From Promethearchaeota archaeon (GTDB lineage: Archaea > Asgardarchaeota > Thorarchaeia > Thorarchaeales > Thorarchaeaceae): 11,059 bases of DNA. Location of the stretch: the NCBI GenBank assembly GCA_048939765.1, contig JBHLPF010000049.1:1-11059 (forward strand), read 5' to 3'. The notes under the pieces were generated by a model. It did not search any database and was not told the DNA's origin. It saw only the letters and a list, made by a program, of their open reading frames with translations. The position numbers were made by a program, and so were the translations under genes. This document shows positions 2,951-8,578 of the stretch, piece by piece; the stretch's first letter is position 1; every line of letters begins with the position of its first letter.

Positions 2951-4225
2951 TTGGTTGCAGAGATTATAGTCACAGTGTTTGTAATCACATACCTCGCCAT
3001 TTCGTCTGAGAAAGTGAATAGAACTGCTACTGCACTGCTGGGCATGGGTGTTGTAGGAATCGTCCTCTGGGCTACTGGCACAGCAGGGTTCGACGAAGTA
3101 TCAGATCGTATCGAATGGACAACCATCCTATTTGTGACCTCTATGTTCATCATAGTCACAATAGCAGCATCTTCAGGAATGTTTCAGTACCTAGCGTTGG
3201 AACTCACGAGGCGTACAGAAGGCGCAACGAAACGCCTTTTCGTATCACTGCTTGCCTTTGTGTTTGTCATTTCCCTTTTCTTTGATACCACATCCACGAT
3301 GCTCATAATGGGACCTCTTACAATAGAGATATGCAAAGCTCTTGAGATCGATTTCAGACCATTTCTGATATCAGAGGCGGTCACATGCAATTTCGCATCA
3401 ATTCCCTCAATTGTAGGAGCAGTACCGAATTTGCTCGTGGCTGAAGAAGCAGAAGTTGACCCAGGTCTCTTGTTTGAGCTTCTGATGCCCCTCTCGGTGA
3501 TTCTATTCGTGGTTTCTGTACCATTGCTCCTACGATTCTTTGATGAACAACTCAAGCCCTCTGAGGAGTATCTTGTTTCTCAAATGATGCTCATCAATCC
3601 CCAATACATGATACGATCGAGATCGGATTTCTACCTCTCGATAGTCGCAATGATCATCCTTGTACTCGGATTCACTCTGGGCCCTGCCACAGGACTACAG
3701 CCCGCAGTAGTTGCGATAGCAGTGGCTGCTGGGCTTCTTATACTCGCACGTGAATGGGTCGATGAGATTTTGAAACGTGTCAACTGGGGTACTATTTTCT
3801 TCCTAATAGGACTGTTCGGGCTCATTGCTGCACTGCAATTGGTTGGCATAATAGTAGCCATAGGAGAGGCAATTGATGGTCTAATTCAGGGAAATGTGCT
3901 GCTTGGCATAGTCTTCATGGTTTGGGTACCAGCACTTCTATCTGCAGTCATTGACAACATTCCAGTTTCAGCTGTTCTAGCACCTATTGCCGCACAGTTT
4001 ACAGTAGTCAGTCCTCTTCTCGCCATCGCGCTCATATTTGCAGTCAATGTCGGTGGATTTCTTCTTCCAATCGGCGCACCGGCTAACATCTTGGCATTGG
4101 CGCTCTCTGAGAAAGAACACAAACCAATCAAGATGGTTGAGTTCGCCAAGATTGCCACTCCTCTCGGATTTCTGATGCTGGCGATTGGAACCGGATGGTT
4201 ATTGCTGCTAGGGCTAGCAGTATAA
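2951..4225 (+). CDS. ArsB/NhaD-type (IT superfamily, P-protein/SLC13-like) permease, paralog 2
   Basis: 424 aa. TTG start preceded by a strong GAGGTGA SD (2938-2944). Same motif set as paralog 1 (ISSEKVNRT, IEWTTILF, SGMFQYLA, SAVIDNIP, PIGAPAN). Confidence 0.9.
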   Translation: MVAEIIVTVFVITYLAISSEKVNRTATALLGMGVVGIVLWATGTAGFDEVSDRIEWTTILFVTSMFIIVTIAASSGMFQYLALELTRRTEGATKRLFVSLLAFVFVISLFFDTTSTMLIMGPLTIEICKALEIDFRPFLISEAVTCNFASIPSIVGAVPNLLVAEEAEVDPGLLFELLMPLSVILFVVSVPLLLRFFDEQLKPSEEYLVSQMMLINPQYMIRSRSDFYLSIVAMIILVLGFTLGPATGLQPAVVAIAVAAGLLILAREWVDEILKRVNWGTIFFLIGLFGLIAALQLVGIIVAIGEAIDGLIQGNVLLGIVFMVWVPALLSAVIDNIPVSAVLAPIAAQFTVVSPLLAIALIFAVNVGGFLLPIGAPANILALALSEKEHKPIKMVEFAKIATPLGFLMLAIGTGWLLLLGLAV

Positions 4226-4298
4226 GAAGAAGGCGGCGCCCCGCCCCCGTCGTGTGCCGCCGGGAGGACAGAACTCAACGGAGACTGGACACCGGGTT
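4226..4298 (-). ncRNA. Candidate small structured RNA (long G.U-rich hairpin), family unknown
   Basis: Minus-strand 5' arm CGGUGUCC-A-GUCUCCGUUG-A-GU-U-CUGUC, loop CUCCC, 3' arm GGCGG-C-AC-A-CGACGGGGGC-G-GGGCGCCG. This gives 18 Watson-Crick pairs, 7 U.G pairs, 3 mismatches and no bulges. It is followed by UUCUUCUU and preceded by a TATA-like box about 25 nt upstream. Transcription is inferred, not shown. Confidence 0.5.
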
Positions 4299-4310
4299 GT
4301 CAGTATGTGC

Positions 4311-4323
4311 AAAGGCTATTAGC
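4311..4323. promoter_or_regulatory. BRE/TATA-like element AAAGGCTATTAGC, possibly bidirectional
   Basis: Purine-rich AAAGG followed by CTATTAG about 45 nt upstream of ATG 4364. The core GCTA-T-TAGC is dyad-symmetric and lies about 25 nt from the 5' end of the minus-strand hairpin. Confidence 0.45.
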
Positions 4324-4363
4324 AATATGGGTTGTGACATGCGCAGCGGAGAAAGAGAAGTCA

Positions 4364-4858
4364 ATGCCAAAGCGAGCTCGATGCCCCCATTGTGACCGAC
4401 TGTTCAATCGGGATGTGCTTGACGCTCACATCCAAAAATGTAGAACTCGGAACAGGAAGAGCATCGAAGAAGCAAGAACTAGAAAGAAGAATCTGGTACT
4501 TGACGGGAACAACATCGCATATCATCTCGCACCAGCTGGCAAGCCAAGAGTTGCTAATCTTGTCCTAGCAAGACAGAGTCTTGTCACCTCTGGCTACAGA
4601 CCAGTTACTATCGTGTCAGCGGCGCTAATCCACAAGATTGACAAGCCAGACAGACTCCGGGAGATGATTGACTTTGGATATATTATTGAGGCACCAAGAG
4701 GGAAGAATGACGACCTCATCATCATTCAGACTGCACAGCAATCAAATGCAGATATTGTGAGCAACGACAGATTCCTTGACTGGCAGGAGAGATTTCCTTG
4801 GATCTCCAATCGTCTGAGAAGATATCGGATGACTCCTTCAGGCCTGATTCTGACTTGA
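4364..4858 (+). CDS. Zc3h12a/Regnase-1-like NYN (PIN-like) ribonuclease with N-terminal C2HC zinc finger
   Basis: LVLDGNNIA, PRGKNDDLIII and IVSNDRFLD...FPWI match the RNase_Zc3h12a acidic catalytic motifs. N-terminal CPHC-x11-H-x3-C. ATG 4364 (MPKRARC, 164 aa) is preferred over GTG 4307 because the upstream extension overlaps the TATA-like box. Confidence 0.85.
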   Translation: MPKRARCPHCDRLFNRDVLDAHIQKCRTRNRKSIEEARTRKKNLVLDGNNIAYHLAPAGKPRVANLVLARQSLVTSGYRPVTIVSAALIHKIDKPDRLREMIDFGYIIEAPRGKNDDLIIIQTAQQSNADIVSNDRFLDWQERFPWISNRLRRYRMTPSGLILT

Positions 4859-4938: not shown

Positions 4939-6726
4939 ATGCTTGCCCACGAATTGAGAGCGCTTTACTTGAAGTTCTTCAAAGGGAAGAAACATGCAAT
5001 AATAGGCTCTGCGTCGCTGATGCCAGAGAATGATCCAACTGCGCTCTATGTCATGGCAGGCATGCATCCACTCATGCCCTTCCTGCTAGGCCAGCCTCAT
5101 CCTGAGGGGAAACGCCTGGCTAACGTCCAGAAGTGTATTCGAACCATAGACATTGACGAGGTTGGCGACACAACACATCTCACATTTTTCGAGATGCTGG
5201 GAAACTGGAGCCTCAATGACTACTGGAAGAAAGAGGCGATAACATGGAGTTACGAGTTCCTCACATCCAAGAAATGGCTGGGATTTGCCCCGGAGAAACT
5301 TTCAGTCACTGTGTTTGAGGGTGATGATGATGCACCGAGGGATGATGAAGCAGTTGGGGTATGGCGGTCTGTGGGGATTCCGGATGAACGCATCTATTAC
5401 CTTCCGAAGGAGGACAATTGGTGGGGTCCCCCTGGCAAAGTAGGGCCGTGTGGACCATGCACGGAGATGTTCATTGAGGTGGATGAGATTCCGAGGTGTG
5501 GCTCTGATTGTAAGCCTGGATGCAACTGCGGACACTTTGTAGAGGTCTGGAATGATGTATTCATGGAATACAACTTGAAAGAGGATGGCAGCTTCGAGAG
5601 ATTGGAGCAGAGGAATATTGACACTGGCATGGGAGTAGAGAGGACTGTAGCCATGCTTCAGGGAGTTCCATCTGTCTTCGAAATTGAGCTTTTCACTCCA
5701 CTTATTGAGAAGATCAAGATGCTCTCAGGAAAAGATGTGATGTCTGAAGAGGAAGACCGGCTTACAAAGATAATATCCGACCATGTCAAGTCAGCTGTTA
5801 TGATCATGGCGGATGATGCTCATATTGCCCCCTCAAATGTAGAACATGGATATATCGTGCGGAGGCTATTGAGAAAGGCGATTCTCAGCGCAGACAAGCT
5901 TGGCATCGGCAAGGGATTCATGGATGCACTCGCCGACATAACAATCGAGATGTACAAAGACGTCTACGAAGAAGTTGAAAGGAATCGCGACTTCATAAAG
6001 AAAAACTTGGAGAGTGAAGAGGCTAAATTCCGTAAAACATTACGGAAGGCACTTGGAAAGTTTGAGCGCATGTTCCAAGAAAATGGGGCAATCACAGGGA
6101 AGGATGCGTTTCTTCTATTCACTAGCTTCGGACTCCCTCTTGAGATGACAAGGGACTTGGCTCAAGAGAAGGGCATAGAGATTGACGTCGATGTGTTTCG
6201 GAAGGAGTTTGAACATCACAGAGATATATCTAGGACGGCGACTGAGGGAAAGTTCAAGGGCGGCCTTGCGGACCATGGCGAAGAACACACAAAGCTCCAT
6301 ACAGCAACTCATCTGCTGCAAGCAGCACTGAGAAAGGTACTTGGCGACAAGGTACAGCAGAGTGGTAGCAACATCACAAAGGAGCGGCTTCGATTTGATT
6401 TCACATTCGATCGCAAGCTTACACCAGAAGAAGTGCAGCAAGTAGAGGACCTGGTCAATGGTATTATCAGAGACGACCTAGAAGTCACAAGGCAGTTCAT
6501 GCCTTATGATGAGGCCATAGCTCAAGGTGCGATGGCATTCTTCAAGGAGAAATATGGAGACACAGTTTCTGTGTATTCTGTGGGCGATTTTAGCATGGAA
6601 CTCTGTGGTGGACCCCATGTCGAACGAACTGGTATACTCGGCAATTTCAAAATTACCAAACAAAAGAAGATTGGTGCTGGAATCATACGAATTCGTGCGA
6701 TTCTTGAGCCTCTTGACGCATCCTAA
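4939..6726 (+). CDS. alaS: Alanine--tRNA ligase, short form (aminoacylation + editing domains, no C-Ala domain)
   Basis: 595 aa. Motifs DPT....AGM, QKCIRT.DIDEVG...HLTFFEMLGNWS, DNWW..GPCGPC.E, EVWNDVFM, IDTGMGVER, PSN...GY.VRRLLR, editing HTATH and ELCGGPHV, and GIIRIRA just before the stop. Confidence 0.98.
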   Translation: MLAHELRALYLKFFKGKKHAIIGSASLMPENDPTALYVMAGMHPLMPFLLGQPHPEGKRLANVQKCIRTIDIDEVGDTTHLTFFEMLGNWSLNDYWKKEAITWSYEFLTSKKWLGFAPEKLSVTVFEGDDDAPRDDEAVGVWRSVGIPDERIYYLPKEDNWWGPPGKVGPCGPCTEMFIEVDEIPRCGSDCKPGCNCGHFVEVWNDVFMEYNLKEDGSFERLEQRNIDTGMGVERTVAMLQGVPSVFEIELFTPLIEKIKMLSGKDVMSEEEDRLTKIISDHVKSAVMIMADDAHIAPSNVEHGYIVRRLLRKAILSADKLGIGKGFMDALADITIEMYKDVYEEVERNRDFIKKNLESEEAKFRKTLRKALGKFERMFQENGAITGKDAFLLFTSFGLPLEMTRDLAQEKGIEIDVDVFRKEFEHHRDISRTATEGKFKGGLADHGEEHTKLHTATHLLQAALRKVLGDKVQQSGSNITKERLRFDFTFDRKLTPEEVQQVEDLVNGIIRDDLEVTRQFMPYDEAIAQGAMAFFKEKYGDTVSVYSVGDFSMELCGGPHVERTGILGNFKITKQKKIGAGIIRIRAILEPLDAS

Positions 6727-6753: not shown

Positions 6754-6868
6754 AAGATTCAAGCGCAATGCCCATATTGCCTCGCCACAGTAAAAGAAAC
6801 AGAGAGGGATTTTTGAGTCCCTTTGGTCTCCCAAGATGGAGTGCATTATTCAAACTGAGTGGAAGAAA

Positions 6869-7531
6869 ATGGGAACGTTTTCGAAGATTTTTGGGCTTGG
6901 AGACAAGGACCTCCAAAAGCAGGCTGATGAGCTTCTCCTGAAACTAAGCAAAGCATTGCAATCGGCTAGTGCAAAACTGCATGTCTGTACAGATGACTGG
7001 GAAGACGGCAAGATGAAGCATCTTGACGAATTGCAGGATGAAATCATCACCCTTGAGAGAGAAGCAGACTCAGTCAAAGAGGAGTTGTATGAGAAAATAT
7101 TCTCTAAGCGAGCCTATCTCCCTCAGCAGACCCAGGAACGATATCAACTGGTCCAGCACATGGACAGCATAGTGGATGCCACCGAGGAGGCAGTCAGGAT
7201 GATGCTTGTAGGAAGAGACTACAAGCCACCTGAGGAGCTAGGAGATATTGCAGAAAAGAGCTGGATTTGTACAGACCTCCTTCAGGATGCAGTCAAATAT
7301 CTCTTCACAGATTTCAAGAAATCTGTTGAATACACTATGAAAATCGACAGAGTTAGGGAGGAGGCAAGAGACCTCCACTTCAGACTGCTCGAGAACCTGT
7401 TCAATGACAAGAAGTACACGGCAAAGGAAGTCAGCATGTTTCGCGCAGTATCAGAAAGACTGATTCTTGTAGCTGTTCGGTCCGAGAACACTGGCGATTT
7501 CATCCGCACGATAGTGCTGAAGTACTCATAA
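6869..7531 (+). CDS. DUF47 family (PhoU-like) phosphate transport regulator
   Basis: All-helical acidic protein with LEREADSVKEEL..KIF...YLP...ER..L...MD.IVD and a second repeat R.REEARDL...ENTGD. It lies directly upstream of a PiT gene, the typical DUF47 context. ATG 6869 (MGTFSKIFG) is preferred, with 6836 as an alternative. Confidence 0.88.
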   Translation: MGTFSKIFGLGDKDLQKQADELLLKLSKALQSASAKLHVCTDDWEDGKMKHLDELQDEIITLEREADSVKEELYEKIFSKRAYLPQQTQERYQLVQHMDSIVDATEEAVRMMLVGRDYKPPEELGDIAEKSWICTDLLQDAVKYLFTDFKKSVEYTMKIDRVREEARDLHFRLLENLFNDKKYTAKEVSMFRAVSERLILVAVRSENTGDFIRTIVLKYS

Positions 7532-7549: not shown

Positions 7550-8578
7550 TTGGAACCAGTCCTACTAGGTGTATTGCTCATCATCAGCTTCCTTGTCGCT
7601 TTTGCCATTGGAAGTAATGACGAAGCAATGGCACCGGCTGTTGGGGCGAAAGTCTTCACAGTCAACATAGCTGTTGCCATTGGCGGCTTAATAACCATGT
7701 TAGGGGCAGTCACTATGGGCGGCAATGTTTCTGAGAAAGTTGGCTCTGACTTGGTCAGGGGCTTGACACTTTCCCCAGAGATGGTGTTTGCCATTCTGAT
7801 ATCAATGGCTATTTGGCTATTGATAGCATCCGCAACCAAAGGACTTCCGATTAGTACGACACAGTGTATAGTAGGGTCTGTGATTGGTGTAGCCATATTC
7901 GCGCCCGTAATGGGATATGTCGGATGGGGTGCTGAGGCGGTAGACTGGTTTGTTGTGCTGGAGGTATTTGCAGGATGGATAATCTCGCCAGTAATTGGCT
8001 TCTTCATCGCTGCAGCAGTCTTTGCGATGGTAAGACGCATCCAGAAAAGAGCAGAAGGACTATCTGACTTCGAGAAACAGGAGAGGATTGCTTCTTACGG
8101 TCTAGCGGCCTTTTTGATATGGACTGCCTTGAGTAGGGGAGGGAATGACGTAGCCAATGCTATAGCCCCTATTGTAGTGCTTCCCGATTTCCAAGGCACG
8201 GTCGAGTTTGGGATCATTATTCTACCCACGGTGTTGTTACCATTACTCATTGGCGGTTTTGGTATGGCGCTGGGACTGATCATAATTGGTAGAAAGGTGA
8301 TTAGAACACTTGCGACTGAAGTTGTGACTCTTTCTCCTTCTTCAGCACTCGCTGCGAGTATTTCTGTGGCATTGATAATGTTTGTAGGAACTCTTCTTGG
8401 ATTGCCTCTTAGTGGAACCCACGTCCTTGTTGCAGCGCTAATTGCGGTGGGGTGGGTGTCAGAAACGCCTGTTCAGATGAAACAAGTAAAGGACATTCTG
8501 ATATCGTGGATTATTACCGTACCAATCTCGGCAATTCTTGGAATGGTAGTGTTCGCAGTGATTCTTGGGTTCGTCTAG
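7550..8578 (+). CDS. PiT/PHO4 family inorganic phosphate (anion) transporter
   Basis: 342 aa hydrophobic protein with two inverted repeats: GSND / GLPISTTQ.IVG and GGNDVANAIAP / G..VIRTL / GLPLSGTH. TTG start with an AAGGAG SD upstream. Confidence 0.92.
   Translation: MEPVLLGVLLIISFLVAFAIGSNDEAMAPAVGAKVFTVNIAVAIGGLITMLGAVTMGGNVSEKVGSDLVRGLTLSPEMVFAILISMAIWLLIASATKGLPISTTQCIVGSVIGVAIFAPVMGYVGWGAEAVDWFVVLEVFAGWIISPVIGFFIAAAVFAMVRRIQKRAEGLSDFEKQERIASYGLAAFLIWTALSRGGNDVANAIAPIVVLPDFQGTVEFGIIILPTVLLPLLIGGFGMALGLIIIGRKVIRTLATEVVTLSPSSALAASISVALIMFVGTLLGLPLSGTHVLVAALIAVGWVSETPVQMKQVKDILISWIITVPISAILGMVVFAVILGFV

Follow-up and report, generated by a model that had tools for sequence, protein, structure and literature searches.

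A conserved hairpin RNA family of Thorarchaeota with an invariant apex complementary to the ribosome-binding region of a small-protein gene

A strand-specific hairpin between a permease gene and an NYN RNase gene

We analyzed a window of 11,059 nt, the whole stretch of DNA considered here, from a Thorarchaeota (Asgard) genome referred to as G000; coordinates given without a contig label are those of this window. A hairpin at positions 4234-4294 on the minus strand lies between two plus-strand genes. The convergent neighbor (2951-4225) encodes a CitMHS-family permease (PF03600, 3.2e-59), and the divergent neighbor (4364-4858) encodes a 164-aa protein that combines a C2HC zinc finger with a Zc3h12a-like NYN RNase (PF11977, 5.6e-14; PF13913, 1.6e-4). 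The alanyl-tRNA synthetase (AlaRS) gene is the next after the NYN gene, and no minus-strand gene adjoins the hairpin. The AlaRS ORF (4939-6726) has only 595 aa, corresponding to the catalytic core and the SAD domain, and is followed by a further ORF at 6836-7531. On the other side of the hairpin, the permease gene is the second of two tandem CitMHS/ArsB-type permease genes (1328-2824 and 2951-4225), whose products are ~50% identical to each other.

The names carried by homologues of the NYN protein assign the genome to Thorarchaeota; an initial idea of an ammonia-oxidizing thaumarchaeon, followed up by a search for AmoA, proved wrong. The hairpin coincides with a rise in G+C content, up to 0.70 in 4240-4299 vs ~0.45 in the surroundings. 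RNA folding of the minus strand from 4294 to 4234 gave a hairpin free of bulges, with 8, 10, 2, and 5 bp in its successive stems, 18 Watson-Crick and 7 U.G pairs in all, three single mismatches (A.G, A.A, and U.C), and a 5-nt loop, CUCCC (4266-4262). In all seven wobbles, the U belongs to the 5' arm and the G to the 3' arm. An initial reading of this DNA from its letters alone (the sequence-only reading) had described the hairpin in these terms, and its description was correct in every detail.

The same reading had proposed that the structure is specific to one strand, which the folding analysis bore out. The minus strand reached a minimum free energy (MFE) of -38.3 kcal/mol, corresponding to a z-score of -2.99 (200 dinucleotide shuffles, one of which folded as well), vs -27.0 kcal/mol and a z-score of -0.29 for the plus strand, whose fold differs from and is unrelated to the minus-strand hairpin. 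All 50 distinct orthologues examined likewise had the lower MFE on the sense strand (mean z-score, -3.16 vs -0.58), so that the strand asymmetry is a property of the family and not a chance feature of a single sequence. Other genera have C-G or U-A where the window has its U.G pairs, and the plus strand would therefore carry C.A mismatches in place of the latter. The U.G-only pattern stressed in the sequence-only reading is thus true of the window but limited to its genus, and the replacement of these pairs elsewhere is what gives rise to the covariation described below.

Comparison with orthologues, which we refer to as type-1 RNAs, defined a common architecture that runs from base to tip through P1, one bulged base, P2, a variable internal loop, and the apex. 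On the basis of the fold of the window hairpin, a 66-sequence alignment (A6), and a covariance model (R1; 74.8 bits, E = 1.6e-13), we placed the 62-nt core of the window copy, from P1 to the 3' NCC and including the internal mismatches and P3, at 4232-4293 on the minus strand. P1 has 7 bp (GGCGUCC/GGACGCC in the family); in the window its 5' arm, GGUGUCC (4287-4293), pairs with GGGCGCC (4235-4241), the 3' arm assigned from the alignment, and 4294/4234 adds an eighth pair on top of these seven. The single bulged base after P1 is mostly U. P2 comprises 6-10 bp across the family and includes a run of U.G pairs; in the window its U-rich 5' arm GUCUCCGUUG (4276-4285) pairs with the G-rich 3' arm CGACGGGGGC (4243-4252), as supported by both the fold and the alignment. 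The apex consists of the P3 stem (4267-4271/4257-4261) and the CUCCC loop (4262-4266) and has the invariant form GUC-CUCCC-GGCGG; it lies in the sole invariant block of the family, GUCCUCCCGGCGGC (4256-4269, minus strand), which we propose as the seed of the RNA. The 3' arm of P1 is followed by N-C-C and then by a C/U-rich tail. In the window, the 3' arm could alternatively fold on itself into a local GGCGG/CCGCC hairpin, after which comes the U-rich tail (4229-4248, minus strand); this terminator-like fold is not kept in other genera, where the sequence of the 3' arm differs.

Conservation, covariation, and comparison with known RNA classes

The sequence-only reading had suggested a novel stand-alone small RNA (sRNA), for which it expected conservation and compensatory change in related genomes, no match to a known RNA family, and no dispersion as a repeat. 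We searched the 86 genomes of the window's family with a first covariance model built from 11 type-1 sequences. Matches were obtained in 58 of the 86 genomes, at the orthologous position, and the same element was found upstream of orthologous NYN genes in other genera. Each of these genomes carried one copy except G072, which carried two; the element of the window is likewise single copy in G000. One copy per genome in 57 of 58 genomes is not the pattern of a dispersed repeat or MITE.

A second model, built from 50 distinct sequences, detected the RNA in 20 of 26 family genomes and in none of 124 genomes from other families of the phylum, and a class-level search, which covered only one genome more than the family, added nothing. 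Searches without strict filters recovered diverged copies in two more genera (G042, 21 bits; G045, 37 bits). We also retrieved metagenome loci through the NYN protein alone, a selection that is unbiased as to the RNA; 32 of the ~37 loci with enough upstream DNA carried the type-1 RNA, always on the strand opposite to the NYN gene. The type-1 RNA gene is specific to one family of Thorarchaeota.

To examine base pairing, 66 distinct type-1 sequences were aligned with MAFFT. Standard pairs were formed in 92.0% of the cells of the alignment, vs 43-59% when the partners were slid against each other. Both-sided (compensatory) changes occurred at 9 of 17 pairs, and only 0-1 of 500 shuffles reached the observed values. 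Five of the seven P1 pairs showed such changes across the family, and three consecutive P2 pairs alternated among U.G, U-A, and C-G.

A search against Rfam 15 gave no match over 4226-4298 at E<=10 and no gathering-level match in the whole window, in keeping with the failure of the sequence-only reading to recognize a known class. An H/ACA guide would have a large pseudouridylation pocket, a K-turn or K-loop (tandem G.A), and an ACA/ANA box 3' of the lower stem. The element has single-base mismatches only, with no tandem GA on both strands of its upper stem, the position of the 3' box is occupied by NCC, and no Rfam H/ACA model matched. A C/D box sRNA was also rejected, as neither RUGAUGA nor CUGA occurs within 4232-4293; the only C/D match, a weak one to sR14 (E = 1), falls within the NYN gene, at 4701-4740. 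The signal recognition particle RNA, RNase P RNA, and 5S rRNA of G000 are encoded elsewhere, on contigs C12, C46, and C64, respectively. Taken with the covariation, these results indicate that the hairpin is very probably a genuine, conserved, stand-alone structured RNA.

Flanking signals and gene neighborhood

A TATA-like box, CTAATAG (CTATTAG on the plus strand), lies at 4316-4322 on the minus strand, 22 nt from the foot of the hairpin and centered ~26 nt before P1 begins. Nearly all orthologues have an A/T-rich box of this kind, which precedes the first base of P1 by ~24-31 nt, including those in which the RNA and the NYN gene are separated by a spacer of 130-177 nt, where it cannot be the promoter of the NYN gene. 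The tRNA genes of G000 have A/T boxes at similar distances upstream. At the other end, the window hairpin is followed by CCUUCUUCUU; the C/U-rich 3' tail UUCUUCUUAU (4222-4231, minus strand), a presumed termination signal, overlaps the stop codon of the convergent permease gene. Nearly all orthologues have a pyrimidine-rich tail after the RNA, resembling the CUUCUU-type pyrimidine trailers in which the tRNA genes of G000 end. The promoter and terminator proposed in the sequence-only reading are thus strengthened by comparison, and every check on a stand-alone RNA that could be run was favorable. Judging from these signals, the type-1 RNA appears to have its own TATA-type promoter and to end, like tRNA genes, in a C/U-rich tract; we infer its transcription from them.

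In the window itself, the box is part of a dyad, GCTATTAGC (4315-4323), and could also serve the NYN gene. The box is 26 nt from the start of the RNA and ~26 nt from a plausible start of the NYN mRNA, whose gene has a GGAG at 4348-4351, 13 nt before the AUG. In the window's genus, the box may be a shared bidirectional TATA element.

The NYN gene is divergent from the type-1 RNA, at a distance of 70-177 nt, in every type-1 locus with flanking sequence, and the AlaRS gene follows the NYN gene in all of these loci. The permease gene is missing beside the RNA in seven loci, in which the NYN gene is adjacent too. Different genera retain one or the other of the two permease paralogues beside the RNA. 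NYN genes with no detectable type-1 RNA were found in genera g6 and g25. The linkage between the RNA and the NYN gene is one of adjacency within a single family, syntenic only.

A sibling RNA with the same apex

In a screen of 400 genomes from the phylum, the 14-mer CGTCCTCCCGGCGG matched 42 of 85 family genomes, several of them twice, with three matches outside the family, vs two for a reversed control pattern. The three exact matches outside the family lie in other Asgard families (loci L155 in G136, L156 in G153, and L157 in G301), and inspection by eye, without folding, revealed no evident hairpin context at these sites.

The second apex sites within the family define another RNA of 91-101 nt, referred to as type 2. 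In G000 it is encoded on contig C87 (21323-21413, minus strand; L211:2001-2091) as an RNA of ~91 nt with the same apical hairpin. It is closed by a GGAGA/UCUCC stem and contains a covarying inner stem, a small hairpin to the side, and an arm that ends in the apex. A covariance model (R3) detected type 2 once each in 72 of 86 family genomes; 95% of its cells are paired, 48 of them compensatory, and it has no Rfam match. A canonical TTTATA box lies ~30 nt upstream. A protein-coding reading was ruled out by a 1-nt indel in the loop among near-identical copies.

Type 2 is unlinked to the NYN gene, from which it is 1.4 Mb apart in G047, and is usually located upstream of a 259-aa SAM methyltransferase gene. 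In G000, it lies 175 nt downstream of tRNA-Gln(CUG) and adjoins an Arf-family GTPase gene. The occurrence of one invariant hairpin on two different scaffolds points to the apex as the working part of both RNAs.

Complementarity to the leader of a conserved 90-aa gene

To identify candidate partners of the apex, we searched G000 for its complement. The 11-mer complement occurs at three sites, namely the two sRNA genes and position 7852 of contig C69 (minus strand), which is the Shine-Dalgarno region of a 90-aa ORF (C69:7571-7840, minus strand; gene with leader 7571-7870, L214). The 9-11-mers complementary to the apex occur in G000 at chance frequency, with 0.9 copies of the 11-mer expected per genome, so the case for this target rests on the position of the site over the Shine-Dalgarno sequence and on its conservation.

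In G000, the apex GUCCUCCCGGCGGC has a 14-bp complement in the leader of the 90-aa gene, and the complementarity spans 12-14 nt overall. A seeded scan of the whole genome (4876 windows) placed this leader first among the non-self duplex partners of the window apex, at -37.8 kcal/mol; in the corresponding scan for type 2 it ranked about ninth by duplex energy. In all 10 genomes checked, type 1 and the leader could form 13-15 contiguous bp. The net gain on cofolding was -6.0 kcal/mol for type 1 vs -1.4 +/- 1.2 for shuffled leaders, and -4.3 for type 2 vs -1.6 +/- 2.1, which is within the range of the shuffles. The second-best partner of the window apex (-36.5 kcal/mol) is at C13:14560-14724, where GCCGGGAGGAC is preceded by a CCTATATATG box and followed by a 35-codon ORF; the plus strand there resembles a type-1 gene in antisense (GGGAGGAC..GGAAAC..UGGAC). 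A match of 7-9 nt between a P2 arm and the 5' UTR of the NYN gene was also considered and rejected, as it is found only in part of genus g1.

The complementary site is conserved over the ribosome-binding site of the 90-aa gene. CCGGGAGG is present in all 65 orthologous leaders, 11-16 nt before the AUG, and the 12-mer CCGCCGGGAGGG in 52 of the 65, with flanking bases that vary between genera. This block is in part simply a strong Shine-Dalgarno sequence: such sites in G000 read GGAGG(UG) with a peak at -16 to -12, and the 3' end of the 16S rRNA is GAUCACCUCCU. Homologues of the 90-aa gene outside the family are without the CCGCC extension of the block, and neither sRNA was found there. On the RNA side, the CUCCC loop and its flanks are invariant and are repeated in the sibling sRNA. 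The seed is mostly base-paired inside the sRNA, with 5 nt exposed. In the predicted fold of the leader, GCCGGGAG forms a loop; no consensus hairpin for the leader emerged when a MAFFT alignment was folded with RNAalifold.

Covariation between the two partners was not significant when own-genome pairs were compared with permuted pairs (940 of 5000 permutations for type 1 and 425 of 5000 for type 2). A single fully compensatory case was found in G078, with GGUGG in the sRNA and CACC in the leader.

Every one of the 16 genera of the family carries the 90-aa gene, which occurs in 66 of 86 genomes and has a TTTATATT box ~55 nt before its AUG. The protein has no Pfam or NCBIfam match, and its homologues are named only 'hypothetical protein'. 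Its predicted structure (pLDDT 75.7) is an alpha-beta4-alpha arrangement, for which no fold match was found in the PDB at E<=0.001.

Proposed mechanism and alternatives

From these observations, we propose that the type-1 RNA is a stand-alone sRNA of ~62-72 nt (4232-4293, minus strand) whose apex masks the ribosome-binding site of the 90-aa gene. The covarying scaffold helix of P1 and P2 would present the invariant apical hairpin GUC-CUCCC-GGCGG, and its C-rich loop, which contains the anti-Shine-Dalgarno look-alike CCUCC, would kiss that of a short hairpin in the gene's 5' leader. The duplex would then grow to 12-14 bp across GCCGCCGGGAGGGC, which contains the Shine-Dalgarno sequence, and could block ribosome binding and thereby repress translation. 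Type 2 (~95 nt), which carries the same apex, may act on the same leader site as a sibling. We infer both the pairing in vivo and the repressive direction of its effect from the complementarity and its position. We judge the chance that the type-1 RNA acts by masking this site to be about even, and we lean, by a little, toward the explanation as a whole.

One alternative is that the apex is a recognition site for a protein and that the RNA serves as a substrate, decoy, or cofactor without base pairing to a target. Candidate proteins would be the divergent C2HC/NYN (Regnase-like) RNase or a factor that binds the 3' end of 16S rRNA. The nucleotides of the apex stem, together with one U.G pair, stay constant instead of covarying, a pattern that a protein-binding site would explain as well; CCUCC occurs both in the loop and at the 3' end of 16S rRNA; and the NYN gene neighbors every type-1 locus with flank, including the seven without the permease, as well as the RNA of the 32 metagenome loci. 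However, the type-1 loci all come from one family, in which the synteny may simply be inherited, g6 and g25 retain NYN genes with no detectable type-1 RNA, and the sibling RNA bearing the same apex is unlinked to the NYN gene. We regard protein binding as rather unlikely. A combination of the two ideas, in which the sRNA and the divergent RNase form one system and the sRNA, besides pairing with the leader, either recruits the nuclease or depends on it for licensing, seems improbable to us. If true, it would represent an Asgard RNA-guided forerunner of eukaryotic Regnase-type stem-loop-directed mRNA decay.

The resemblance of the base of the hairpin to an acceptor stem raises the possibility of a tRNA-like or housekeeping RNP RNA, handled by tRNA enzymes such as RNase P, the CCA-adding enzyme, or AlaRS, whose gene lies two genes away. 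The 7-bp P1 is followed by a single, mostly U, bulged base, NCC stands after P1 in 50 of the 66 distinct sequences (ACC 30, GCC 11, TCC 7, CCC 2), the flanks resemble those of tRNA genes, and the AlaRS gene follows the NYN gene in all loci. Yet ARAGORN called no tRNA at the element, Rfam gave no match at E<=10, and the 5-nt CUCCC loop is not T-loop-like. The NCC is followed by U or C, whereas the canonical tRNA genes of G000 encode the full CCA, and the pair at 3:70, by which a tRNA-Ala- or tmRNA-like substrate of AlaRS would be recognized, is C-G in 57, U-A in 5, and U.G in 4 sequences but never G.U, while the tRNA-Ala of G000 keeps G3.U70. This identity is thus very doubtful. A purely local role in cis, either as an antisense RNA or an insulator/terminator for the permease transcript or as a double-stranded DNA regulator site at three loci, would suit the short distance between the end of the RNA and the permease stop codon in most loci (8-67 nt), the plus strand without a T-tract after that stop codon, and the presence of the same 11-12-bp motif as DNA at three places in G000. 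It is hard to reconcile with the seven loci in which the permease is absent and with a plus strand that does not adopt the fold. Moreover, in each of two different RNA genes the motif caps a covarying hairpin, an arrangement for which a DNA site has no need, and the asymmetry between U.G and C.A points to selection on RNA, so we consider a local role very unlikely.

Relation to known systems

Archaeal trans-acting sRNAs that mask ribosome-binding sites have been described in Methanosarcina mazei, namely sRNA154 (through its loop 2) and sRNA41 (PMC5867862). Like these, the type-1 RNA is an intergenic archaeal stem-loop sRNA with an unpaired anti-ribosome-binding-site loop proposed to block initiation (PMC5867862). 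It differs from them in lacking sequence or structural homology and any Rfam match, in its Asgard lineage, in being known from sequence only, and in its form, a single long hairpin with one 5-nt loop and one predicted small-protein target.

Among bacteria, the Rsa RNAs of Staphylococcus aureus and LhrC of Listeria are C-rich-loop ('UCCC motif') and shared-seed sibling sRNAs. The type-1 RNA shares with them a UCCC loop complementary to GGGAG-type Shine-Dalgarno sequences and the occurrence of two sRNAs with an identical seed hairpin, but it belongs to another domain of life, shows no homology to them, and has a complementarity of 12-14 nt that extends into the stem. The antisense systems CopA/CopT and RNAI/RNAII act through kissing loops and are cis-encoded and fully complementary. 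A loop-loop first contact followed by helix extension is also predicted here, between CUCCC and the leader loop GCCGGGAG, whereas the type-1 system is trans-encoded and its duplex is short. Among the papers searched, none on a regulatory sRNA of Asgard archaea was found. The type-1 RNA would represent a new family of a known kind, that of sRNAs masking ribosome-binding sites, and it is a member of no described family.

These results outline a riboregulatory circuit, open to testing, in the prokaryotes most closely related to eukaryotes. The circuit is predicted to comprise two sibling sRNAs, one family-wide 90-aa target, and a 12-14-bp interaction over the Shine-Dalgarno sequence, and its small size makes it amenable to in vitro and heterologous tests. 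The NYN neighbor recalls eukaryotic Regnase-1/Zc3h12a, which acts on stem-loops, in that a zinc-finger Zc3h12a-type NYN RNase is encoded beside a conserved RNA stem-loop. Here, in contrast to Regnase-1, the relation is one of gene adjacency in one family, and linkage is absent for the sibling RNA and for some NYN genes; the adjacency nevertheless merits a direct biochemical test. The two covariance models can be used for the annotation of Thorarchaeota genomes and for mining metatranscriptomes.

As a minor observation on the tRNA genes used for comparison, all 20 canonical tRNA genes called in G000 by ARAGORN encode the 3' CCA, while a doubtful 21st call (tRNA-Phe, contig C76) does not, and several of the tRNA genes of this genome have introns (106-142 nt).
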